A stretch of 17,520 nt of DNA from Nitrospinota bacterium (GCA_036231405.1 JAZAHK010000022.1:1-17520); one strand, 5' to 3'; shown: positions 761 to 17,239, counted from the stretch's first letter. Numbers and translations: made by a program. The notes: a model not told the origin generated them from the sequence alone.

Positions 761-1747
761 CTACTTCTTTTTCACTCCGATGCTAGCTAGAATTTTTCCA
801 AATGCAGCATGTTCATCAGCGAAGTCTTGTTTTAAAGCAGGTCCCCAGAGAGGAGATGGTTTCTCACCCATCTTCTTTAGGAGTTTTATGTACGTTTTAT
901 TTTTCACTAACTTTTTGAAAGCAGAAACTAGAAAATCAATAGTTTCCTTAGGTGTTCCCTTTGGAGCGATGATTGATCTTTTCGAAGCCAATACAAAATC
1001 CACGCCGTTTTCAATCATAGTAGGCACTTTTGGAAACATTTTAATTCGTTTCTTTGAACAAACTCCAAGGATCTGAACTTGACCTCTCCTATAACGACCA
1101 AGTGTTCCGCCAGTTGCTGGCAATGCGCCAAACGTATCAATATGTCCACCGAGGCCAGCTCTATATGCAGGACCACCACCTTTAAAAGGAATATGTTTAA
1201 TTTTCGCGCCCGTATCAGCCATGATTTTTAAAAGCATAAGATGACCTGTTCCGTAGATTCCGGAAGAACCATAACTAATTTTGCCTGGATTTTTCTTTGC
1301 CGCGGCTATGAATTGTTTAAATCCTTTCCAAGGCTGAGATGCCATAGCTGCCATCATATAATCAGCTTTTGTAAACATGAAAACGAATTCAAAATCGTTA
1401 AGTGGATCATAACCCATTTTTCTTACGTGTGGTCCAATAGTCAGATGAGATGCAGAAGACATTAATAGTGTATGCCCATCATTTTTCGCTCTCTTAAGAG
1501 CATGCATCGCTATCTTTCCACCACCACCAGGCATAAGTTGCACGATCATTGGTTGTCCAAGATAATCATAAGCAACAGAAGCAACAGCCCTTGTATTCAA
1601 GTCATGCGATCCACCTGCACCAAGAGGAACAATCACTTTGATTGGTTTCCAAGGGAATTTTCTCGCATGTGAATCTCCCAAACCCATAAAGAGTGTGGTT
1701 AAAGAAAGTGCGAGTACAACGACCAACAAAAACTTAAATTTACCCAT
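761..1747 (-). CDS. tctC: Tripartite tricarboxylate transporter substrate-binding protein (TctC/Bug family)
   Basis: Start reassigned to ATG 1747 (MGKFKFLLVVVLALSL..., signal peptide, AGGAG Shine-Dalgarno just upstream); the ORF-track start at 1807 overlaps tctA. Motifs FPWKPIKVIVPLGAGGSHD, PGGGG, DGHTLL, GSSGIYGTGH, HIPFKGGG, PKVPTM, APKGTP. Confidence 0.93.
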   Translation of the reverse strand: MGKFKFLLVVVLALSLTTLFMGLGDSHARKFPWKPIKVIVPLGAGGSHDLNTRAVASVAYDYLGQPMIVQLMPGGGGKIAMHALKRAKNDGHTLLMSSASHLTIGPHVRKMGYDPLNDFEFVFMFTKADYMMAAMASQPWKGFKQFIAAAKKNPGKISYGSSGIYGTGHLMLLKIMADTGAKIKHIPFKGGGPAYRAGLGGHIDTFGALPATGGTLGRYRRGQVQILGVCSKKRIKMFPKVPTMIENGVDFVLASKRSIIAPKGTPKETIDFLVSAFKKLVKNKTYIKLLKKMGEKPSPLWGPALKQDFADEHAAFGKILASIGVKKK

Positions 1748-1776
1748 TGCATTTTCTCCTTTATTAAAGAATGAAT

Positions 1777-3267
1777 CTATTCTGCAGCAACTTTCGGTTT
1801 TCTCCAAATACTTAATCCTAAAATTACAGCAGCTAAAATAATAAAAAACAGTGAAATTGGTCTTGTGAAAAAGACAGTATAGTCACCTCCTGAAAGTAAT
1901 AGAGCTTGCTTGAAGGAACGTTCTGCCATAGGGGTGATGATATATGCAATTACTAGTGGAGCAAGTGGGAACTTTAATTTTCTAAACATATACCCAAATA
2001 ATCCAGCGAGTAAAGCTAATTCAACATCTCCAAGATGGTTGTGGTAAATGTATCCGCCTACTACACAAAAAAGAAGAATACATGGAATTAAAATTGCTTG
2101 ACGTATAGTAACAACCGCGGCAAAAAGGCCAGTCAGTAACCAACCCTGTACAAGCATAATAGGATTCCCGATAAGCAGGAGTGTGAAAATAGCATACATA
2201 GTCACTGCATTTTCTTCAAATAAAGAAGGTCCGGGCCTAAGTCCCTGCGCGATGAAAGCTCCCATTAAAATCGCAGCGGTTCCACCTCCAGGAATTCCTA
2301 GTGTCAGAGTAGGAATAAGGTCAGCACCTGCTACAGCGCTATTTGCAGCTTCAGCAGCGGCAACCCCTTCGTAACTTCCTTTCCCGAATTCTTCAGGTTT
2401 TTTTGATGCTCTTTGTGCAGCTCCATATCCTATGAAGGTGGCTATCGAAGAACCCGTTCCTGGGATCGCTCCTACGATAGTTCCAATAATCGAAGAACGG
2501 AAAATAGTGCGTCTTGATTCTTTAAATTCTTTCATCTTCAATGAACGCCCACCTTTTAAGTGAGCGATTGCGGGTTTTTGGGCAAGTACAGTAAGTTTCT
2601 TCTCAACTTGTATGAGTACTTCACTTATAGCAAATATTCCAATAAGAAGTGGGACTAATCCTATTCCTCCTTGTAACGTATCATAGCCGAAGGTAAATCT
2701 CTCGGATCCCGTTACAGCATCAAAACCAACTGCTCCAATCAATAAACCTAAAAGAGCTGAAATAATTCCTTTAGGAACCGAAGCACCAGTCACACTGGAA
2801 ATAACAGTTAGGCCCATTACCATCAATCCGAATAAATCTGCGGGTCCAAATTTTAAAGCTAAAGCTGCGATTGGTATGGCAGCAACAATTAATGCAATAT
2901 CACTGAAAGTATCGCCTAAAGTGGAAGAGTATAGAGCCATCTGTATTGCACTTTTTGCCTCCCCTTTTTGTGCGAGAGGATAACCGTCGAGACATGTAGC
3001 AGCAGCCGGTGGTGTCCCAGGGGTGTTGACAAGTATCGCAGGAATAGATCCTCCAAAGAGTGCACCTTTATGTACCCCAAGCAAAAATGGAATTCCAAGT
3101 TCTGGGGCCATGAAAAAAGAAAAAGGTACTAGGATGGCTGTAGCCATAACGCCAGTGAGTCCAGGAATAGCGCCAACAGTAATACCTGCAAAAACACCGA
3201 TAGCAACCATCGCTATAGCCTTAAAAGTTAAGGCTAAAAGAACACCCTCTAAGATTTGATCTATCAT
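1777..3267 (-). CDS. tctA: Tripartite tricarboxylate transporter large permease (TctA)
   Basis: 496 aa polytopic membrane protein with the TctA repeats GITVGAIPGLTG / GTIVGAIPGTGS, GGSIPAILVNTPGTP, DGYPLAQKGEA, EAANSA and PTLTLGIPG. Confidence 0.95.
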   Translation of the reverse strand: MIDQILEGVLLALTFKAIAMVAIGVFAGITVGAIPGLTGVMATAILVPFSFFMAPELGIPFLLGVHKGALFGGSIPAILVNTPGTPPAAATCLDGYPLAQKGEAKSAIQMALYSSTLGDTFSDIALIVAAIPIAALALKFGPADLFGLMVMGLTVISSVTGASVPKGIISALLGLLIGAVGFDAVTGSERFTFGYDTLQGGIGLVPLLIGIFAISEVLIQVEKKLTVLAQKPAIAHLKGGRSLKMKEFKESRRTIFRSSIIGTIVGAIPGTGSSIATFIGYGAAQRASKKPEEFGKGSYEGVAAAEAANSAVAGADLIPTLTLGIPGGGTAAILMGAFIAQGLRPGPSLFEENAVTMYAIFTLLLIGNPIMLVQGWLLTGLFAAVVTIRQAILIPCILLFCVVGGYIYHNHLGDVELALLAGLFGYMFRKLKFPLAPLVIAYIITPMAERSFKQALLLSGGDYTVFFTRPISLFFIILAAVILGLSIWRKPKVAAE

Positions 3268-3746
3268 TTAAGGAATAACTCCCCTTCTGGAAGTATAACT
3301 TTGAAGCTGTACCAAAAAAAATAATTCAAAAAGAGAGGAAAAAGTAGAGAAGTAGGTATTACATAACGCCAGTCTCTCAAACCAAGAAGGACAATAATAA
3401 TCGCCATAAAGACAGGAGTGCTAATCGAGTATCCAAAATATCTCAAAGAGATTACGTACAAATACGATAAAAAGAAAACGAAGACGACTCTTGATATAGC
3501 ACTTTTATAATCGTCCCCGTAGGTTTTTTCGTCTGTTTTAAATTTTATTGAGGCAATCAAAAGTGACACAGATGCAATAGCTAGAATAAAAACAGTTAAA
3601 CGCGGAAAAAAATCAGGGTGCAGAACCGCAGGTGTATTTTCTTCGATTGGAATAGAAGAAATGATTTGCGTCGGAATTATATAAAAGTAAGAGAAAAAAC
3701 TAAATCCGAGCAGAACGATACTGATTATAATAGAGCCTTTGCGCAC
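3264..3746 (-). CDS. tctB: Tripartite tricarboxylate transporter small permease (TctB)
   Basis: 160 aa, about 4 TM helices, PDFFP motif, FGYSIST and C-terminal F..ILPEG. GTG start; ATGA overlap with tctA. Confidence 0.85.
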   Translation of the reverse strand: MRKGSIIISIVLLGFSFFSYFYIIPTQIISSIPIEENTPAVLHPDFFPRLTVFILAIASVSLLIASIKFKTDEKTYGDDYKSAISRVVFVFFLSYLYVISLRYFGYSISTPVFMAIIIVLLGLRDWRYVIPTSLLFPLFLNYFFWYSFKVILPEGELFLK

Positions 3747-4674: not shown

Positions 4675-6999
4675 TTAAGTTTCCATTATTTCAGGAGTTT
4701 GGAAAGCTGTGACTTCGGGAAGTTTTTCAGTGAATTTACTTACTTCTACCAATGTACTATGTGAGGATGGTCCTTGTGAAAGACTCGAAGTTCCTTTGTC
4801 GAGAGTCAATACATTTGGGTTTCCGTGTTTATCTAGAGAACCCGGCACTCCAGGCTCAACAGGATCAAACCATGCTCCTGTGTAAATTTGTATGACACCT
4901 TCTCTTATATCTTCACTTAGACTTGCCCCTGCTAGAATACTGCCTCTTTCGTTGAAGATTTTTATGACATCTCCATCTTCTATCCCTCTCCGTGATGCTT
5001 CTTTCGGGTGTATGACAGCAGGTTCTCTTCCTTTGATTTTAGTTGAAAGACTGCAAGAACCGTGGTCCATCTGACCATGTAATCTATTTTTAGGTTGATT
5101 GGAAATAAGATGGAGTGGAAATTGTTTTGCAATATCAGAACCTAGCCATTCGCTAGGTTCAATCCATTTTGAATGAGGTGGACAATCCTCGTAGTTGAAA
5201 CTTTCTAGGGTTTTGGAAAAAATTTCTATTTTTTTACTTGGAGTATTGAGAGGAAATTGTTCTGGGTCGTTTCTGAAATTTTCAAAAAGAACAAATGGTT
5301 TGTTTGGCGTCTCTATTTTTATGTGACCATTATTCCAGAATGTATCAAAGCTAGGATATGAGAATCCGTTTTCTCCTGCATCTTCTTTGCATTCATTGTA
5401 CAAATATTTGATCCACTGCGTTTCATCTCTTCCTTCTGTATAATCTTCTTCGAATCCTAATTTATTAGAAAGTAGAGAAAAAATTTCATAATCGCTCTTC
5501 GCGGTCCCAACTGGTTCAATGGCTTTTTGCATTGCAATGATGTATGTGTCTTTACTTCCAGATCCTATATCGTTTCTTTCCAGTGTCGTTGTTGCCGGTA
5601 ATATAATGTCTGCGTGTTTTGCTGTGGATGTCCACCATGGGTCGTGGACAATTACGGTGTCAGGTTTTTTCCAAGCCTCGATAAGTCTATTTAAGTCCTG
5701 GTGATGATGGAAAGGATTTCCGCCGCACCAGTAAATGATCTTTGTTATAGGGTAGGTCCTTTTTTCTCCATCAAAGTCGTAAGATTTTCCAGGATTAAGG
5801 AAAAGGTCTGCTATACGAGCTACAGGAATATAAGAATTGATTGGATTGTCACCAGTAGGTAGTTTTGGGGTAGGAAAATTTTCGTTTTGGATGCCAATTC
5901 CTCCCATGCTTCCGTATCCAAAAGCAAATCCTCCTCCTGGTAAGCCTATCTGTCCGAGTATCGATGCAAGAGTTATCGTCATCGAAAAAGGTTGTTCTCC
6001 AAATTCAGCTCTTTGGAGAGACCAATTTGTGGCGATCATGGTTCTTGAAGATGCCATCTTTTTGGCCAAAAGCAGAATTTCTTCTTCAGGAATCTCCGTT
6101 ATAACAGAAGCCCATTTTGCATCTTTAGGTTGACCGTCGTTAGTTCCTAATAAATAAGGTTCAAATTTATCGTAACCTATACAGTTTCTCTTTAAAAAAC
6201 TTTTACTATGTAGATTTCCTATTACGAGAGTATGGGCAAGGCCAAGCATAAGTGCTGTGTCAGAATTCGGTCTGATTTGCAACCATTTTGCATTTGTGAA
6301 TTTTGGAATATCAGAACGAAGAGGGCTAATATTAATGAATTCAACTCCTTTGTCTTTGGCTTTTTTCAACCATTCTTCTGTTGAATGTTCAGCTATTCCT
6401 CCATTCATGACTTGATTATTTTTTACGGGGATACCCCCGAAGAGAACCATTAGTTCAGTGTTCTCTACAACACTGTCCCATGAAGTGGTTTGACTGGAGC
6501 AGACCGAGTTTGTTCCAACTAAATATGGGGTTATCGCATATCCTGCGGAAATGCTATAGGTAAATTTCTGATCTGTGAATCCGCCGAACAAATTAAAAAA
6601 TCTTTTCAATAAACCCTTGGCATTATGAAATTTACCAGCACTTGCCCAACCATAGGAACCGGCAAAAATAGACTCGTTGCCATGTTCTTTTTTTACTCTC
6701 TTCAGTTCATCTGCAATTAGGTCAGTAGCTGTTTCCCAAGAGACAGGAATGAATTTTTCTTTTCCCCTATCAGCTTTGCTCTTCTGAGGGCCTTTTTCTA
6801 GCCAGCCAGAGCGTACCATGGGACTTGATACACGGGTTTTTCCGTAGATGGAATTTGGGATAGAATTTAGAATAGGAGATGGACAAGGATCGTTTTTGAA
6901 AGGCCTAACCTTCGTGAGTTTACCATCTTCAACAATAGCATCGAACGCACCCCAGTGAGATGAATGATGGTAGGTTTTTTCTGTATTTACTGAATTCAA
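4675..6999 (-). CDS. Cytoplasmic molybdopterin (bis-MGD) oxidoreductase, BisC/TorZ/DMSO-reductase type (S-/N-oxide reductase)
   Basis: 774 aa, TTG start with AAGGA upstream. Motifs SHWGAF, PMVRSGWL, GSYGWASAG, TYS (Ser Mo ligand), GGNPFHHHQD, ADIILPATTTLERND, RLHGQ and C-terminal GAWFDP/HGNPNVLTLDKGTS. No twin-arginine leader and no N-terminal Fe-S Cys motif. Confidence 0.93.
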   Translation of the reverse strand: MNSVNTEKTYHHSSHWGAFDAIVEDGKLTKVRPFKNDPCPSPILNSIPNSIYGKTRVSSPMVRSGWLEKGPQKSKADRGKEKFIPVSWETATDLIADELKRVKKEHGNESIFAGSYGWASAGKFHNAKGLLKRFFNLFGGFTDQKFTYSISAGYAITPYLVGTNSVCSSQTTSWDSVVENTELMVLFGGIPVKNNQVMNGGIAEHSTEEWLKKAKDKGVEFINISPLRSDIPKFTNAKWLQIRPNSDTALMLGLAHTLVIGNLHSKSFLKRNCIGYDKFEPYLLGTNDGQPKDAKWASVITEIPEEEILLLAKKMASSRTMIATNWSLQRAEFGEQPFSMTITLASILGQIGLPGGGFAFGYGSMGGIGIQNENFPTPKLPTGDNPINSYIPVARIADLFLNPGKSYDFDGEKRTYPITKIIYWCGGNPFHHHQDLNRLIEAWKKPDTVIVHDPWWTSTAKHADIILPATTTLERNDIGSGSKDTYIIAMQKAIEPVGTAKSDYEIFSLLSNKLGFEEDYTEGRDETQWIKYLYNECKEDAGENGFSYPSFDTFWNNGHIKIETPNKPFVLFENFRNDPEQFPLNTPSKKIEIFSKTLESFNYEDCPPHSKWIEPSEWLGSDIAKQFPLHLISNQPKNRLHGQMDHGSCSLSTKIKGREPAVIHPKEASRRGIEDGDVIKIFNERGSILAGASLSEDIREGVIQIYTGAWFDPVEPGVPGSLDKHGNPNVLTLDKGTSSLSQGPSSHSTLVEVSKFTEKLPEVTAFQTPEIMET

Positions 7000-8381: not shown

Positions 8382-8828
8382 TTGTCTGCTATCATAGGAG
8401 TAATTGGAGATTCCAATCCATCAAAGGAAGTGTATGAACTAGCAGTGGAAACTGGTCGTGAAATTGCAAGAAGAAAAGCTATTTTAGTTTGCGGCGGCCT
8501 TGGTGGAATCATGGAAGCAGTTTCTATGGGCGCAAAAGAATTAGGTGGAATGACAATCGGCATTTTACCTGATTATGATATTTCTAAAAGTAATGAATAT
8601 GTAGATATTCCTATAGCGACAGGCATGGGGCATGCAAGAAACGTCATCATAGCTGCAACCGCTCATGCTTTGATTGCATTGCCAGGTTCTTATGGAACTC
8701 TCTCTGAAATTTCTCATGGACTCAAACTTGGGAAAAAAGTCGTAGCTCTTGGAAGAGAAGAAAGCCCGCCTGATGTTGTTCTTGCGAAAAATCCGCAGCA
8801 TGCTGTTGAGTTAGCTTTAGATGTTTAA
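8382..8828 (+). CDS. TIGR00725-family / LOG-SLOG superfamily Rossmann-fold nucleotide-binding protein
   Basis: IIGVIG, ILVCGGLGGIMEAVSMGAKELGGMTIGILP, IATGMGHARNVII and PGSYGTLSEI (LOG-like PGGxGTxxE). TTG start. Confidence 0.88.
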   Translation: MSAIIGVIGDSNPSKEVYELAVETGREIARRKAILVCGGLGGIMEAVSMGAKELGGMTIGILPDYDISKSNEYVDIPIATGMGHARNVIIAATAHALIALPGSYGTLSEISHGLKLGKKVVALGREESPPDVVLAKNPQHAVELALDV

Positions 8829-9540
8829 GTTTTTCGCTTTTCTCCTTGTTTTTTTTATTTCCTCTTGTTCTTTTTATGAAAGTCCAAGATATACATCTTA
8901 CAAACAGAGAGGGACATATCACTACGTAAAACGTGGAGATACTCTTTGGAAAATTTCAAAAAGATATCGAATCGATATAGAACAGTTAGCTGTTTTAAAC
9001 GGAATTAAAAATCCAAACAGATTGAAAGTAGGCAAGAGAATTTTTATTCCAAGACGTTCGTTTCGCCATCTAAGTAGAATCAAAAGTTACGGAAAAAGAA
9101 GGAGTCATCCGCTATGGACAAAAAAGAAAGCCTTTAGAACCAGAGCAATAAATAATAGTGGAGTAAAATTTAAGTGGCCTGTAAAGGGAAAGGTTGTGAA
9201 GAAGTATGGATACTATGATGGTGTGAAGTTTGAAGGAATTATTATACGAACCAAAAAAAGAGAGACGATAAAAGCATCTGCCCCAGGAAAAGTGATTTAT
9301 AGTAGTTGGGGTCCTGGAAGCTATGGAAGGATGGTAATTGTTCGCCATGCCGGCGGAAGATTTCATTCTGTATATGCTAACAATTCGAAGAATCTTGTGA
9401 AATTAAATGATGCCGTTTTCACAGGTACTCCTATTGCTAGAGCTGGAATTTCTAGTTATAAGGGAAAATCGACGTTACGTTTTGAAATTCGATACCGTAC
9501 AGTGCCTAAGAATCCTATATCTTACTTACCTAGGATGTAA
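8821..9540 (+). CDS. LysM + degenerate M23 domain lipoprotein (NlpD-like amidase activator)
   Basis: Lipoprotein signal ending ISSC; LysM YHYVKRGDTLWKISKRYRIDIEQLAVLNGIKNPNRLKVG; M23 fold FKWPVKGKV...ASAPGKVIY...YGRMVIVRH...FEIRY...NPISYLP. Confidence 0.9.
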   Translation: MFKFFAFLLVFFISSCSFYESPRYTSYKQRGTYHYVKRGDTLWKISKRYRIDIEQLAVLNGIKNPNRLKVGKRIFIPRRSFRHLSRIKSYGKRRSHPLWTKKKAFRTRAINNSGVKFKWPVKGKVVKKYGYYDGVKFEGIIIRTKKRETIKASAPGKVIYSSWGPGSYGRMVIVRHAGGRFHSVYANNSKNLVKLNDAVFTGTPIARAGISSYKGKSTLRFEIRYRTVPKNPISYLPRM

Positions 9541-9558: not shown

Positions 9559-10083
9559 ATGGACAAAGTGAAAGATCTTCTTTCCTTTATTAGAGATGTC
9601 CCTGATTTCCCAAAAGAGGGAATTATTTTTAAAGATATTACCCCTGTATTGATGAATCCAGATGCGTTTAAATTTGCTATTGATTCGATGGCGAAACCTC
9701 TGCAGGATGAAAAAATTGATTTAGTGGGAGGGGTTGAAGCAAGGGGATTTATTACCGCAGCATCTCTTGCTTATAAATTAGGTGCAGGTCTTGTTTTGGT
9801 TCGAAAACCAGGGAAACTTCCGTGGGAAAAAGAAGCAACGACGTATGAATTAGAGTATGGGACTGACACATTAGAAATACATAAAGATGCAATCAGTCCC
9901 GAAATGAACGTATTGATTGCAGACGATCTTGTCGCAACAGGAGGTACTGCAAAAGCATGTATAGAACTGGTGGAAAAAGTAGGGGGGAGAGTTCACTCCT
10001 TATCCTTCCTCATAGAACTTTCTTTTCTAAATCCTAAAAAAAATCTTTCGGATTATACAATTCATTCGGTGATAACCTACTAA
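9559..10083 (+). CDS. apt: Adenine phosphoribosyltransferase
   Basis: IRDVPDFPKEGIIFKDITP, EARGF, VRKPGKLP, YELEYGTDTLEIH and the PRPP-binding VLIADDLVATGGT; AAGGA SD. Confidence 0.97.
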   Translation: MDKVKDLLSFIRDVPDFPKEGIIFKDITPVLMNPDAFKFAIDSMAKPLQDEKIDLVGGVEARGFITAASLAYKLGAGLVLVRKPGKLPWEKEATTYELEYGTDTLEIHKDAISPEMNVLIADDLVATGGTAKACIELVEKVGGRVHSLSFLIELSFLNPKKNLSDYTIHSVITY

Positions 10084-10668
10084 ATGGATGCTCTGCAAAA
10101 TTTTAAAAAAATAGATCCAAGAAGAGCGGGATATCTGCAATTTGCTTTAAGGGCAATGATTGTATTGCAAGTATTGGGATATTTTCTGATATTTTTCGGT
10201 GTACTTGGTCCAAATATGCCTGGAGAAAATGGATTTTTTGCTAGTATGGCAGAACGTTTAGTAAAACCTTCTAAGTTTGATCAACTTCATGAAAAGTTCA
10301 ATAAAATTGATTTGCAAGAGAAAGTAGCAAGAAAAGCAGGAATTTCTAAAGCTAAGGCTGGTCTAGCACTTAAGGCTATCCAAGAGGAATTTAACTTATC
10401 TCTAGAGAAAAAAAGAAACCTTATTTCAATGCATAGCTTATTCGGAAGTTTTTATAAAGACCTTGTAAAATTAACGAAACAGATTCTATCCGTATCGGTT
10501 GCAATGTCTTTACGATTAGCCGCTGTATCCACAGGTCTCATTATTATTTTGTCTGGAGGCTGGATAAGAAGAAGAATTCGCAATTGGTTAATACGTTTGA
10601 AAATGAAAACTACGGAAGAAAAGATCGAGATATTAGAAAAACGTATAATTGAATTAGAAAAAAAATAA
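10084..10668 (+). CDS. Hypothetical two-TM membrane protein with an HU-like helical insert and a C-terminal coiled-coil-like tail
   Basis: ATG directly follows the apt stop (TAAATG). Hydrophobic segments at about aa 20-42 and 134-160; PNMPGxxGF motif shared with the next gene; tail EEKIEILEKRIIELEKK. Confidence 0.8.
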   Translation: MDALQNFKKIDPRRAGYLQFALRAMIVLQVLGYFLIFFGVLGPNMPGENGFFASMAERLVKPSKFDQLHEKFNKIDLQEKVARKAGISKAKAGLALKAIQEEFNLSLEKKRNLISMHSLFGSFYKDLVKLTKQILSVSVAMSLRLAAVSTGLIIILSGGWIRRRIRNWLIRLKMKTTEEKIEILEKRIIELEKK

Positions 10669-10717: not shown

Positions 10718-11131
10718 ATGATTACTTTTTCAAAAGTTTTGATTAAATGCCTCTTGCCTATTCTAATTCTTGCTTATGGTCTTTTGTTTTCAGGAATTAC
10801 AGGTGGATGGCCTCCTAATATGCCTGGCAATGATGGTTTTTATGCAAAGTTGGCAAAAAAAATCGTTCATTCTAGTATTGCAGATCAATTTCCTTCACTT
10901 AAAAATGAAAAAAAGACGAGGGATTTTATAGGTGATTTGTTTAAAAGAAAGCTAATGATAGCTGGAAGAGAGGCAGTTCTTGGACCTTTTATAGCAATGG
11001 TTGAAGTCCTATTGAGAATCCTTGCGATAATGACAGGGATTATCTTAATTTTATTAAATATACATATAAGAATGATTTTTTCAGAAAAAAGAATTAAATA
11101 TCTAGAAAATAATAATATTACTAAAATATGA
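10718..11131 (+). CDS. Hypothetical two-TM membrane protein, paralog of 10084-10668
   Basis: GGAG SD. PPNMPGNDGFYAKLAKKIV aligns with GPNMPGENGFFASMAERLV, LRILAIMTGIILIL with LRLAAVSTGLIIIL, and SEKRIKYLE with TEEKIEILE. Confidence 0.8.
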   Translation: MITFSKVLIKCLLPILILAYGLLFSGITGGWPPNMPGNDGFYAKLAKKIVHSSIADQFPSLKNEKKTRDFIGDLFKRKLMIAGREAVLGPFIAMVEVLLRILAIMTGIILILLNIHIRMIFSEKRIKYLENNNITKI

Positions 11132-12273: not shown

Positions 12274-12669
12274 CTAATAACTACATATTTTTTTTATAGC
12301 AATATCCCAACTTGATTCAGGAGGATAATATTTCCAATTCTTATCAGCATTAGAGTTTGTAAAAAAATGTGGTTCTTTACCCATTGATGTTTTGTACCCA
12401 ATCCAACTTAGACGTTTATAACCATTAGAATTACAATCTATTTTCATATAAGTCTTAAGTGAAAGTATCCCGGATTCTTTAAAAGGTTCGACATAGTCAT
12501 CTAACGACCAAACATAAGTGTATCCTTTACTTTTTTTTATGGATTTAAAATCCACATAGAAGGTGTCTCCATCCACACTTTCACTCACCTTCGTCCATTT
12601 TGCATAGGATGGTGATGAGAACATTACTGTTGAGAATAGTAGTGTGAATATGAGAGTTAGTTTTTTCAT
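12274..12669 (-). CDS. Secreted protein resembling the surface-adhesin E family
   Basis: Sec signal MKKLTLIFTLLFSTVMFSSPSYA, then W..V....GDTFYVD..SI.....Y.YVW, KIDC, W.Y.PPES and a terminal IC (two Cys). The family was recognised by pattern only. Confidence 0.6.
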   Translation of the reverse strand: MKKLTLIFTLLFSTVMFSSPSYAKWTKVSESVDGDTFYVDFKSIKKSKGYTYVWSLDDYVEPFKESGILSLKTYMKIDCNSNGYKRLSWIGYKTSMGKEPHFFTNSNADKNWKYYPPESSWDIAIKKICSY

Positions 12670-13951: not shown

Positions 13952-15439
13952 CTATTCTTTGCCACGCCTAAAGATGCCATCATAAAAGGTGTAGATCACG
14001 ATAATTATGAGTATCGTGCCTATGGGCCTATCTATGATGACAGTCCACCATTCTTGATCTTCAAATACCATTAAAGCCCTTCGTAAATTTTCATCTGCAA
14101 GGGGCCCAAGAATTACTGCCAAAACCATTGGGGCAAGAGGAAATCCAAAACAGTGGAGAATATAACCTACAATTCCTGAGATCAGCATCAAATACACATC
14201 AAAATAGCTCAAACTAACAGCGAAAGATCCCATTACGCAAATTGGTATAATAAGCGGCATTAAAAGTGTGCGTGGTAAACTAAATAATTTGACACACGGT
14301 TTTATCAATGCGATGGCCATACCGTACATTAAGAAGTTAGCTATTATCAGACCTATATAAATAAAGAAAATGATGCCTGGATTTTCTGTCTGTATTGTTG
14401 GTCCAACAACGACATTTTTCATTTCCAGAGCTGCCAAAATCGCTGCTGCCGCTGCATTGCCAGGTATGCCCAGGGTGAGTGTAGGTAGCATTGAACCGCC
14501 AATATTAGCGTTGTTGGCAACTTCGGCGCAAACAATTGCTTCATAAGAGCCTTTCCCCCATCGTTTACGTTCTTGTGCTTTTGCTCTTCTACGGCCTATG
14601 TCATAAGATAAAAAAGATGCAACGTTGGCACCAGCCCCTGGTATGGCACCTATAATAGTACCTATGATCCCTGAACGAAATGCCGCTCGACTATATCCTA
14701 TTAATTTTTTCAAAGGCGGGATAATTTTTCCTACTTCACTTGGTATTTTCGGAGGGCTATTTTGAGGTAGGACCTTAAGAATTTCTGTTAAGCCAAATAA
14801 GCCTATAAGCAGGGGAACATAGCTTATTCCATCTTCTAAAGTACGGATGCCGAATGTAAAACGCGTTACTCCATGAATTGCATCAACCCCGACAAATGAA
14901 ATCATTAAACCAATCCAGCCTGAGATCCAACCCTTAATAGGCATATCACCAGCGGCCATTGACCCACAAATGGCAATACCCCACATTGACAGGAGGAACA
15001 TTTCCCAAGATCTGAATTGCAATGCAAGAAAGAGAATAGCGGGAATAAATGCTATCAGTAAAACGATACCGATCCAATTCCCCATAAAAGAGGCCATGAT
15101 TGCTGTACCAAGCGCTAACCCACCTTGACCTTGTTGAGCTAGTTTGTGGCCTTCAATCATTGTTGGAACTGCATCTGGCGTTCCTGGTATGTTAATCAAA
15201 ACAGCGGAAATTGCTCCGCCAAACACGCTTCCAGTATACACTCCTAGCATAAACATAATTGCTACATGTTGAGACATTCCAGTTGAAAGACCAATCAAAA
15301 GGGCCATTGCCATAGTGGTTGAAAGGCCAGGCATAGCTCCCCATATTATTCCAAGTGTGACGCCTAAAAGGCAGACCCATAGCATCCATAATTGAAAAGC
15401 AATTGCCGCTTGGGATAAGATTTCGTGAATTTCAAACAT
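13952..15439 (-). CDS. tctA: Tripartite tricarboxylate transporter large permease (TctA), second copy
   Basis: Start reassigned to ATG 15439 (MFEIHEIL..., 495 aa), just after the tctB stop; the longer ORF-track start overlaps tctB. Motifs GIIWGAMPGLS, GGAISAVLINIPGTP, GTIIGAIPGAGA, EVANNA and PTLTLGIPG. Confidence 0.94.
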   Translation of the reverse strand: MFEIHEILSQAAIAFQLWMLWVCLLGVTLGIIWGAMPGLSTTMAMALLIGLSTGMSQHVAIMFMLGVYTGSVFGGAISAVLINIPGTPDAVPTMIEGHKLAQQGQGGLALGTAIMASFMGNWIGIVLLIAFIPAILFLALQFRSWEMFLLSMWGIAICGSMAAGDMPIKGWISGWIGLMISFVGVDAIHGVTRFTFGIRTLEDGISYVPLLIGLFGLTEILKVLPQNSPPKIPSEVGKIIPPLKKLIGYSRAAFRSGIIGTIIGAIPGAGANVASFLSYDIGRRRAKAQERKRWGKGSYEAIVCAEVANNANIGGSMLPTLTLGIPGNAAAAAILAALEMKNVVVGPTIQTENPGIIFFIYIGLIIANFLMYGMAIALIKPCVKLFSLPRTLLMPLIIPICVMGSFAVSLSYFDVYLMLISGIVGYILHCFGFPLAPMVLAVILGPLADENLRRALMVFEDQEWWTVIIDRPIGTILIIIVIYTFYDGIFRRGKE

Positions 15440-15447
15440 TTTTGATT

Positions 15448-16062
15448 TTAACCTGAACCTGGGAGGAGAATTTGAAATCCATCCCTGAATATGATGGCGA
15501 GTGATACGACAATACCAGTGGCTACTAAGAAACAATTGAGAACATTGGATCGCCAAAAGTAACGTAGTATGAAATAGACAAAGGGAATTGAAATTAGTTC
15601 AAATCCTGAAAAACGGAATGTATAAAAGTTAGTCTTGAAACGCAAATCTAGATCCATTTGGCCCAAAACAAAAACATAGGTTCCGACAATAATCATTAGC
15701 ATTAATGTTCGACGTGACTCAGTATTTAGAAAAGAATCCTTAAAGCTTTTAAGACTTTTGCTTTTCAGCATTTCTTCTATGCCATAACGGCGTTTGGTTT
15801 TAATAAAAAGACCTATGGCCATTAAAGTGAGGCTTGCACCAGTAAAAAATGGTAAAAGCCCAGGCGCGGTTGATAAATCTGCGGGGGAACCTAATTTGAC
15901 TGATGTATACATCGTGATTAATCCAAATAAAGCAATGATGATAGATGCAATAAAATCTTTTTGCGGGCTTGAACGTTCTCCACCGCCTTCTTCTCCGGTG
16001 AATACCCCTTGTTCTAGGCTTTCAATATCTGCATCAATCCTGGATTTATTTTGTTCTGCCAT
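15448..16062 (-). CDS. tctB: Tripartite tricarboxylate transporter small permease (TctB-like), second copy
   Basis: 204 aa, about 4-5 TM helices, APGLLP motif and C-terminal F...FQILLPG; lies between tctC and tctA; has an acidic N-terminal extension. Confidence 0.8.
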   Translation of the reverse strand: MAEQNKSRIDADIESLEQGVFTGEEGGGERSSPQKDFIASIIIALFGLITMYTSVKLGSPADLSTAPGLLPFFTGASLTLMAIGLFIKTKRRYGIEEMLKSKSLKSFKDSFLNTESRRTLMLMIIVGTYVFVLGQMDLDLRFKTNFYTFRFSGFELISIPFVYFILRYFWRSNVLNCFLVATGIVVSLAIIFRDGFQILLPGSG

Positions 16063-16109
16063 CTTTATATAACTTTTTTAGGTAATGAATAATTTTAATA
16101 TATTAAAAT

Positions 16110-16150
16110 AAAATCGAGTGGGTCACATTTCTAGTGAGCCACTCGATTTT
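16110..16150 (-). terminator. Intercistronic stem-loop / partial terminator after tctC
   Basis: AAAATCGAGTGG-G-TCAC-ATTTCTA-GTGA-G-CCACTCGATTTT: a 16-bp stem with one mismatch, with T-rich tails on both strands. Confidence 0.8.
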
Positions 16151-16180
16151 TATAACTATTTCTTTTTGTAGAATTTATGC

Positions 16181-17239
16181 CTATTTAGGCGCATTATTTT
16201 TCCACCAAGCCCCAAAGTTTGCTGGAGATGGTAAACCCAGCTGCGCTGGTGATTTTGCGTTTTTGATTTTCAATTTAGCAAAAGTAGCAGCTGTAGACAC
16301 CTCTACTTGGGCGGCCCGGCGATCGGCATCTTTGCCTAGACGGATATCAATATCAAAGTACTTCTTTTTTGCGATTTTAGCAAAAGCAGCAGATTTCACG
16401 CCTTTAACAAAAGCTTTTTGAATTTTTGCTTGTATTGCTTTTGGGACACTGCGGAGCATAGCAAGGTTGTAAATTCCAGAGAATGGCAATTGACTTTTGA
16501 TTTGCGGCAAGTGGTTGCCAACAGATTTTAGAACCGTTCCATTCTTAAGGGTGATATCTTTAGCGCCAGTTTGTTGCATGTTAATGAGTTTGCCGGCACG
16601 TATATGCTCTATATGTTCATGAACTCCCCCACCTGCGATCATGGACTCACCATTCAATCCGGCTAGTGTGGCATTTTTGCCACCTTTGTAAGGTAAATAT
16701 TTCAGTGTGACTCCAGCTGAAACAGCAACACTCGCAGCTAGTTCGTGCCAGAGGCCACCTGTTCCCGAGGTTGAAATACTAATTTTCCCAGGGTTAGCTC
16801 TTGCGGCCGCAATGATATCTTTAAAACTCTTGAATTTTGAGTCAGGACGAACAGACCAACTACCAAGTGAGTTAGCTGCTTGCATATATTGCCAATCCCG
16901 CCAAGCACGAGATTTGGTATGTCCCATAACGCTTGCGTATTTATTGTAATTAGCTGCTCCCAACAAAGTATAGCCATCAGCTTTCTTGCCAAGGACATAT
17001 TTTGTTGCTTTGCCACCTACATTGCCTGGTTTGTTGATTACGTTAATAGCCCAGCCAGTAGATTTTTTCATTTCGCCAACGATAGTGCGTAAAACAGTAT
17101 CTGTACCACCACCAGCTCCATACATCACAACAACTGTAATGGGACGTTCTGGCCACTCCGCCTTAGCGGATGTGGGTTGAAACGCCATAGCGACTACACT
17201 CATCGCTACCATAATTAATGCTAATTTGAAACTTTTCAT
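16181..17239 (-). CDS. tctC: Tripartite tricarboxylate transporter substrate-binding protein (TctC/Bug family), second copy
   Basis: Signal peptide ending AKA; WPERPITVVVMYGAGGGTD, NKPGNVG, ADGYTLL, NPGKISISTSGTGGLWH and YLPYKGG; GGGG(A) SD. Confidence 0.93.
   Translation of the reverse strand: MKSFKLALIMVAMSVVAMAFQPTSAKAEWPERPITVVVMYGAGGGTDTVLRTIVGEMKKSTGWAINVINKPGNVGGKATKYVLGKKADGYTLLGAANYNKYASVMGHTKSRAWRDWQYMQAANSLGSWSVRPDSKFKSFKDIIAAARANPGKISISTSGTGGLWHELAASVAVSAGVTLKYLPYKGGKNATLAGLNGESMIAGGGVHEHIEHIRAGKLINMQQTGAKDITLKNGTVLKSVGNHLPQIKSQLPFSGIYNLAMLRSVPKAIQAKIQKAFVKGVKSAAFAKIAKKKYFDIDIRLGKDADRRAAQVEVSTAATFAKLKIKNAKSPAQLGLPSPANFGAWWKNNAPK

Follow-up and report, generated by a model that had tools for sequence, protein, structure and literature searches.

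A probable lineage-specific capture of an HU gene fragment by a two-transmembrane protein of a Nitrospinota bacterium

Introduction

Microhomology-mediated templated insertion and template switching are a known class of replication and repair errors, and the reuse of sub-domain segments between unrelated proteins is a familiar concept in the field of protein evolution. Proteins in which HU is joined to a membrane have also been described. According to the part of PMC5499826 that deals with them, these include bacterial HU-CCDC81 proteins, which combine HU with a transmembrane (TM) segment and SPOR/LysM domains, and halobacterial HU proteins with N-terminal TM helices; in the membrane-anchored forms, one or two complete HU domains lie on the cytoplasmic side, and these proteins have been proposed to act as nucleoid tethers. 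Here we describe P0001, a two-TM protein of 194 residues whose loop contains a segment resembling HU. It is encoded by the open reading frame (ORF) at 10084..10668 (+) of a 17,520-nt stretch of DNA from a Nitrospinota bacterium (GCA_036231405.1, JAZAHK010000022.1:1-17520), which we call the window and from whose start all positions are counted; the ORF was defined by translation and by searches for its family. Our preferred interpretation, to which we assign a probability of roughly 0.8, is that the segment was captured in frame from an HU gene in this lineage only, and that it is not a DNA-binding module.

Results

P0001 carries a 33-codon insertion that corresponds to HU codons 4-36

A preliminary description of this DNA reported that residues 72-123 of the ORF (10297-10452) share about 18 identities with E. 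coli HU-beta. The translation is identical to the one quoted there, and in a phmmer search against the PDB the best match was indeed E. coli HU-beta (2o97_B, E = 0.63), in which residues 73-112 align to HU 2-41 with 18 identities by count. Searches of Pfam, NCBIfam and the PDB gave weak matches, pointing to HU alone. The Pfam profile PF00216 (Bac_DNA_binding) scored 15.4 bits on the whole of P0001 (E = 0.023) and 19.0 bits on a 65-residue piece of it (E = 0.0017), being matched over positions 2-50 only, and the NCBIfam HU-beta model (NF007945) scored 18.2 bits (E = 0.0028). When the 37-residue segment was compared by tblastn with its own 2.09-Mb genome, the best non-self match was an HU gene (contig C5:15483-15563; 37.4 bits, E = 2.7e-6, 17/27 identical), while the best scores of 100 composition-preserving shuffles of the segment averaged 21.1 bits (standard deviation 1.3) and did not exceed 25.8. 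An hhalign comparison of residues 66-130 with an alignment of seven HU/IHF proteins, four from this genome and three from congeners, returned a probability of 95.2 (E = 2.8e-8) and paired residues 72-109 with HU 1-38, where the alignment stops; the profile comparison proposed in the preliminary description is thus below threshold with PF00216, yet positive with the HU/IHF proteins of the genus. The three positions within HU 2-38 that are invariant in the seven-protein alignment (K3, K18 and L36) are all retained. A search with residues 70-112 among proteins shorter than 106 residues found none sharing three 5-residue words, a weak test given that genus HU shares three overlapping words.

Codon-by-codon comparison delimits the match as residues 75-107 (10306..10404, +), a 99-nt in-frame block equivalent to codons 4-36 of the genus HU genes, which encodes helix alpha1, a G-I-S turn and helix alpha2. 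In the DNA alignment with three orthologues, a single clean 99-nt gap of 33 codons lies opposite this block. Since the shuffle test, the hhalign result and the coincidence of the match with an indel all agree, the likeness appears to go beyond chance: residues 72-109 are, by these comparisons, homologous to HU 1-38, and the block is very probably an HU-derived insertion.

The insert has a narrow distribution. All three congeneric genomes analysed encode a 170-residue orthologue that lacks it, in conserved synteny, and residues 72-116 used as a query match a separate 90-residue HU gene in each of them. A word-index search recovered six relatives of P0001; five of them (148-170 residues) are without the 33-residue block and the sixth, P0002, is 97% identical to P0001 and contains it. 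The block is missing from 8 of the 10 rows of our family alignment (A2), among them the tandem paralogue described below and two distant members (29-33% identity), and it was found in none of the further family members in the fetched loci and in none of the five loci obtained from a scan of metagenome contigs. The preliminary description had taken the lack of the segment in the paralogue as a sign of insertion. The same 33-codon gap is seen in all orthologues, and the answer to its question of whether homologues keep the insert is that only the P0002 allele does.

The insert is real DNA and not an assembly artefact, because P0002 and independent contigs of three studies carry it. We compared the window with contigs of four seawater sequencing runs, each belonging to a different study (X1, X2, X4 and X10). 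Those of X1, X2 and X4 cross the insert with no gap or joint; the X10 contig does not reach it. The X1 contig equals the window sequence and may come from its source sample, and the X2 contig differs from the window at 21 positions over 1,115 nt.

As had been noted from the sequence, only alpha1, the turn and alpha2 of HU are present. The homology ends at HU 38, and neither the translation, the hhalign alignment nor two structural models of P0001 contain the HU beta-sheet, arm, RNP motif or C-terminal helix; the GRNP of the beta-arm occurs nowhere in the 194-residue translation. The FGSF word that follows the segment, which might have corresponded to the FGTF of HU, was flagged from the outset as possibly the family's own. 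This caution was justified: since the orthologues carry a related hydrophobic-Gly word at this place and the HU alignment ends at position 38, FGSF is a host-family word and not an HU-derived one. When it was included in the tblastn query, the score rose by less than one bit, from 37.4 to 38.1, and gaps were needed for this.

The insert is predicted to form an HU-like hairpin in an outward-facing loop

Hydropathy places an 89-residue loop between TM1 (residues 17-42; 10132..10209, +), which follows a basic N-terminus and reaches a 19-residue Kyte-Doolittle mean of 2.26, and TM2 (residues 132-159; 10477..10560, +), which reaches 1.94. Behind TM2, alignment and charge count define a predicted cytoplasmic tail (10561..10665, +), a basic juxtamembrane stretch followed by a charged amphipathic helix, that is highly conserved in the alignment with the orthologues. 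Lys and Arg residues number four in the N-terminal 16 residues, none in the 15 after TM1, two in the 15 before TM2 and six in the 15 after it. By the positive-inside rule, basic flanks of TM segments stay cytoplasmic, and this distribution therefore predicts that both termini of P0001 lie in the cytoplasm and that the loop faces outward, into the periplasm, in agreement with the earlier argument from its basic termini.

Folded with AlphaFold2 from their sequence alone, residues 64-128 reach a mean predicted local distance difference test score (pLDDT) of 76, with values of 79-88 in the insert. In the model, one helix spans 74-85 and another starts at residue 89, interrupted by G-I-S (86-88), the places at which HU has alpha1, alpha2 and the turn; beyond residue ~107 the helix is predicted to continue into host sequence with falling confidence. 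When this model was compared with the PDB by Foldseek, ranks 1-33 were nearly all HU/IHF chains, aligned over 38 columns with a root-mean-square deviation (rmsd) of 0.9-1.2 Å, a probability of 0.84-0.99 and E values of 0.26-1.7. Because the model reads helix, break, helix and the top structural matches are HU/IHF, the continuous helix or coiled coil that had been named as the outcome speaking against HU was not seen; the break at 86-88 leaves an HU-like hairpin. The alpha1-turn-alpha2 feature of the HU stalk thus appears in the hhalign alignment (95.2), in the hairpin model and in the Foldseek superposition (rmsd ~1 Å). No strand was present in the model of residues 64-128 or in a full-length model, both being helical throughout. 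The insert is thus predicted to add a folded helix-turn-helix hairpin to the loop. A two-copy complex prediction for residues 64-128 scored 0.25 against a mark of 0.32, a value that weighs neither way on self-association.

The capture appears old and the two halves of the hairpin have had different fates

We estimated substitution rates by the Nei-Gojobori method. Between the insert and the four HU genes of the genus, dS is 0.91-1.40 and dN 0.30-0.35. Comparing this species with its congeners, dS is 1.41-1.71 for HU and 1.11-1.88 for the host gene, the latter with a dN of 0.14-0.17 and a dN/dS of ~0.1; among the congeners, dS is 0.43-0.71 and dN 0.02-0.03. Since the synonymous distance between the insert and HU is similar to those of HU and of the host gene between species, the capture is old, roughly as ancient as the divergence of this species from the sampled congeners. 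The host gene is not a pseudogene.

Divergence is unevenly spread over the insert. Its first 19 codons, covering alpha1, the turn and the start of alpha2, have a dN of 0.15-0.18, and its last 14 codons a dN of 0.56-0.72, with 10 of the 14 residues replaced by count. HU itself barely changes in the copied region (dN 0.00-0.04), so that nearly all of the replacements would have occurred on the insert branch. On the assumption that this branch also accounts for some 50% of dS, the first half would be evolving roughly three times more slowly than neutral sequence and the second half close to neutrally, an estimate drawn from few sites. This pattern suggests moderate purifying selection on the first half of the hairpin, with the second half largely rewritten.

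Within the species, the list of differences between the X2 contig and the window, which excludes sites near contig ends, contains seven in the gene. Six of these seven lie in the 99-nt insert, which makes up 17% of the length (binomial P 1.4e-4); three are synonymous and three are replacements (A82S, K91E and A98V), and none of the listed differences in the remaining 486 nt is synonymous. P0002 differs from P0001 by one more replacement, at residue 3. Ongoing gene conversion toward HU was considered for these variants and rejected, as they point both ways.

These data bear on the alternative in which the stalk, the part through which HU dimerises, is an adaptive dimerisation module, pairing periplasmic loops of two copies of P0001, or of one copy and a partner, and kept by selection. 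The low dN of the first 19 codons against a dS of at least 0.9, the retention of the residues invariant in HU/IHF and the hairpin predicted with fair confidence all fit such a module. On the other side, the HU stalk pairs in the context of a beta-sheet that P0001 lacks, the second half of alpha2 has been mostly replaced, and within the species no part of the gene varies more than the insert. We regard this alternative as somewhat unlikely. Put more broadly, a selected role of any kind, dimerisation being one example, is a serious contender that we rate below a tolerated passenger. The more specific proposal that the stalk is a working periplasmic association module which alters the partner or the mode of assembly of the protein is distinctly unlikely; on that proposal one of the duplicated copies would have shed its ancestral periplasmic and TM motifs and acquired a helical pairing element from the nucleoid protein of its own cell, and the fragment may have come by way of the abundant HU transcript, or of the HU gene, during break repair.

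The donor was probably the HU gene of the lineage itself

This genome contains four HU/IHF genes that score above the Pfam cut-off. The present copy of the donor-type HU gene lies outside the window (contig C5:15480-15749) and matches the insert at 18/37 residues and 72/111 nt, compared with 6-12 residues and 42-54 nt for the other three. In a kinship-ordered set of 61 genomes, HU genes from within the genus scored 26.6-28.8 bits against the insert, those of the next genus at most 21.7, those of the rest of the family at most ~17 and those outside the family at most 16.5; searching all 51 genomes available for the phylum left the ranking of donors unchanged. Because the closest HU genes all lie within the genus, the donor was most likely the HU gene of this lineage and not a foreign one.

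The insert is, however, no nearer to the HU of its own genome than to those of the congeners (18 versus 20/37 residues; 72 versus 71-75/111 nt), and at HU positions 35-38 it resembles the version of the congeners and not that of its own genome. Both observations could be expected of a foreign donor, whether the HU gene of another organism, a phage or a plasmid, or a complete insert-bearing allele that was imported, since they fit a source other than the present resident copy. They also fit a capture near the time of the split, before the resident HU changed at these positions, with an unsampled relative as a less likely donor; if the resident gene was copied that early, in its ancestral form, the equidistance is explained equally well. 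Moreover, no HU gene outside the genus matches as well, and a whole-P0001 query of 1.84 billion proteins returned no HU representative at E<=0.001. Neither 50,697 phage records nor 72,556 plasmid records gave a tblastn match at E<=10, searches in which a 37-residue query would reveal only a much closer donor. A foreign origin is therefore an improbable alternative, and the resident HU gene remains our preferred donor.

One junction shows microhomology between the host gene and HU

At the left junction, host codons 73-74 (10300..10305, +), which read AAT AAA in this gene and CAT AAA in the congeners, correspond to HU codons 2-3 when compared codon by codon. At the right junction (10405..10416, +) the DNA alignment shows the host sequence resuming with GAG AAA AAA AGA, an A-rich near-microhomology. 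In the congeners the uninterrupted host site reads CAT AAA, followed by GAG/GAA AAA AAA AGA; the genus HU genes read ATG CAT AAA and continue with GTT/GTA, and the copied block ends with TTA/CTA/CTC ahead of an A-rich run. The 7-nt word CATAAAG is therefore common to the host site (3/3 congeners) and to HU (3/4 genus genes, the fourth having CAC), whereas a random pair of positions in these two genes shares some 7-mer with a frequency of 1.6e-4 to 2.7e-4. As both sequences read CATAAAG, the left junction is one of microhomology. On the 3' side of the copied block the donor continues with a stretch of A (AAAAAA in two congeners); the host sequence begins again with G, followed by an A-run of its own. 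A microhomology-mediated mechanism is our tentative proposal for this event, at slightly less than even odds.

The host belongs to a small family and has a tandem paralogue

The search of 1.84 billion proteins with P0001 yielded five representatives of the host family at E<=0.001, none of them HU; one, the 1009-residue repeat protein P0011, looks spurious. Among 185,579 species genomes the family occurs at four loci, all in Nitrospinaceae/Nitrospinae, and among 61 genomes of relatives it occurs in seven, the window's own included. Our comparisons used members P0003-P0009 and loci L007-L012 and L021-L031. Neither Pfam nor NCBIfam has a family for the insert-free host protein, and the ESM Atlas, queried with an insert-free orthologue, returned unnamed clusters only, with scores of at most 0.83. 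The family thus appears to be tiny and restricted to Nitrospinaceae.

P0001 is 75-79% identical to its orthologues over aligned columns and has the family layout of an N-terminal cytoplasmic segment, two TM segments, a basic juxtamembrane stretch and a charged C-terminal helix, its cytoplasmic N- and C-terminal parts being almost unaltered. The family has three hallmarks: GGWPP after TM1, (Q/I/D)AG before TM2, and a Glu in TM2 four residues before an invariant Arg. All three are kept in the 8/8 other rows of alignment A2 and are missing from P0001 and P0002. According to the protein and DNA alignments, GWP of GGWPP was lost through a 9-nt deletion at 10209/10210 (+) and MQAG through a 12-nt deletion at 10464/10465 (+), and the invariant Glu of TM2 is replaced by Ala at residue 140 (10501-10503, +).

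Alignments and genome searches identified a tandem paralogue of 137 residues without the insert directly downstream (10718..11131, +). GGWPP, the AG motif and the TM2 Glu are all present in it, but the basic juxtamembrane stretch has been lost, so that, on these alignments, the two copies form a pattern of complementary loss. The paralogue is closer to the gene of the congeners (42-43% identity, E 1e-22 to 1e-24) than to P0001 (E = 1.7e-6), and whole-genome searches of the three congeners found one copy each and no second member of the family. Between X2 and the window, the paralogue differs at nine positions in seven codons; six of these codons carry replacements and one a synonymous change, which points to fast evolution or to diversifying selection. 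Given the loss of three hallmarks in P0001, the capture would have taken place in, or been tolerated by, a gene copy whose constraints had changed following a lineage-specific duplication. In alignment A2, the insertion site falls in the least conserved, Pro-rich portion of the loop.

The start codon of P0001 abuts the stop codon of apt (9559-10083), an adenine-phosphoribosyltransferase type gene (Pfam Pribosyltran). In two congener loci (L007 of genome G003 and L009 of G001) the gene is single-copy and sits between apt and a convergent RidA-like gene, with the order LysM/M23 gene, apt, two-TM gene conserved. The link to apt is not conserved across the family, since a distant member (L010 of G008, ORF 1180-1719) follows a large ORF (93-1166) instead. 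In two other genera (L011 of G009 and L012 of G019), one or two in-frame stops in the same linker leave adjacent ORFs for an N-terminal part of 88-98 residues and a C-terminal part of 93-95 residues; this interrupted gene is either a split gene or a pseudogene.

Elsewhere in the window, a SLOG/LOG-like (LDcluster4) gene (8382-8828, +) overlaps by 8 nt the gene for a protein with LysM and M23 peptidase domains (8821-9540, +). Two sets of TctC/TctA/TctB genes of tripartite tricarboxylate transporters occupy 761-3746 (-) and 13952-17239 (-), and the window also encodes an enoyl-CoA hydratase, a molybdopterin oxidoreductase (4675-6999) and an Adhesin_E-family protein (12274-12669).

Discussion

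Our results suggest the following course of events. Codons 4-36 of the lineage's own HU gene, which encode the N-terminal bihelical 'stalk' (alpha1-turn-alpha2), would have been copied in frame into the host-gene loop by microhomology-guided templated insertion, either through a template switch or through break repair with the HU gene as ectopic template. The block would have landed in the Pro-rich linker where the outward-facing loop is least conserved, in a recipient copy freed by lineage-specific tandem duplication. It would have been a single event on the branch to this species, about as old as its split from the sampled congeners. The resulting hairpin is most likely a tolerated structural extension and possibly a self-association element, the second half of which would have been rewritten after the loss of its HU packing partners.

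Several points weigh against this interpretation or parts of it. The gathering score of PF00216 is 22.4 bits and is reached neither by P0001 (15.4) nor by its piece (19.0), and the score of the NCBIfam HU-beta model is far from its cut-off of 157. With the model of residues 64-128, Foldseek gave nothing in the PDB at E<=0.001; AlphaFold2 may moreover recall HU from its training, and Foldseek scores sequence as well as structure. The full-length AlphaFold2 model, made with a 10-row family alignment, is poor (mean pLDDT 58, predicted template modelling score 0.21) and was left out of tertiary-structure and fold-search use. The topology is derived from a hand tally of Lys and Arg residues. As to the donor, the equidistance of the insert described above is joined by synonymous sites near saturation, which blur both the exact donor and the date. 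The case for selection depends on 33 codons and on the assumption that half of the synonymous distance lies on the insert branch, and within-species variation in the gene is highest in the insert, which also fits weak constraint. Finally, exact microhomology is lacking at the right junction, and the congener sequences of today serve as a proxy for the ancestral junctions.

The preliminary description also raised a membrane-anchored, HU-like tether, for which the loop would have to be cytoplasmic and the HU-like helices would bind DNA, or pair with free HU, to link the chromosome to the membrane. Membrane-anchored HU proteins do exist (PMC5499826), and an origin from the resident HU makes pairing with HU conceivable in principle. 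The suggestion nevertheless fared badly: the homology ends at HU 38, leaving out the beta-sheet, the arm, the RNP motif and the C-terminal helix; the models are all-helical; the charges put the termini inside and the loop outside, the wrong way round for a tether; and the known tethers, as far as the cited account describes them, carry whole HU domains. Because the DNA-binding parts of HU are missing and the loop is predicted to face outward, a DNA-binding or nucleoid-tethering role of the insert is very unlikely. Chance or convergent likeness, in which an Ala/Lys-rich amphipathic helix happens to resemble HU, is just as improbable: the marginal scores in generic libraries and the richness of the segment in Ala, Lys and Leu would agree with it, but the shuffles fall far short of the observed score, hhalign gives 95%, the similarity is collinear from HU residue 1/2 and matches the indel exactly, and it follows a kinship gradient that peaks at the genus HU. 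That the segment is ancestral and the relatives lost it, or that the assembly is chimeric, has nothing but the small size of the family in its favour and is hardly credible: no other member that we saw has the insert, the paralogue and distant members included, the insert resembles genus-level and not deep HU, and P0002 and independent contigs of three studies carry it with substitutions of its own.

The capture of an HU fragment that we favour is of modest practical importance, concerning as it does one species-level lineage of uncultured marine Nitrospinaceae. It does hold a caution for annotators, in that a weak HU match in a membrane protein need not imply DNA binding. If the reading of the stalk as an association module were true, P0001 would offer a present-day case, open to dating, of an architecture newly made through sub-domain capture from an unlinked housekeeping gene. 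Our literature search, which was not exhaustive, found no precedent for a bacterial protein gaining a fragment of such a gene.

How P0001 relates to known systems can be stated for each in turn. With the HU/IHF superfamily it shares the homology of residues 72-109 to HU 1-38 and a hairpin that superimposes at ~1 Å over 38 columns; it differs in having only 33 HU codons, within a predicted periplasmic loop and with a score below the cut-off. It would therefore descend in part from an HU gene without being an HU-family protein. Like the membrane-anchored HU proteins, as described in the relevant part of PMC5499826, it joins HU-derived sequence to TM segments; unlike them, it has a sub-domain fragment placed between two TM helices and predicted to face outward. 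The architecture of HU-CCDC81, in which whole HU domains precede a TM segment and a SPOR or LysM domain usually forms the C-terminus, is not that of P0001, in which Pfam finds no SPOR or LysM domain.

As in templated insertion, a short block appears to stem from an ectopic template, with 6-7 nt shared at a junction; here, however, the event is reconstructed from extant sequences, the right junction is unclean and the donor is on another contig. As in other cases of sub-domain reuse, a structured segment of ~35 residues is common to two otherwise unrelated architectures. New architectures made from sub-domain pieces are usually inferred from ancient, blurred similarities, whereas in this case extant genomes appear to reveal which gene gave and which received the fragment, roughly when this happened and where the DNA was joined: a resident HU gene as the probable source, a young duplicate as the recipient, codons 4-36 as the copied block, one microhomology junction, a relative age and unlike fates of the two halves of the hairpin.

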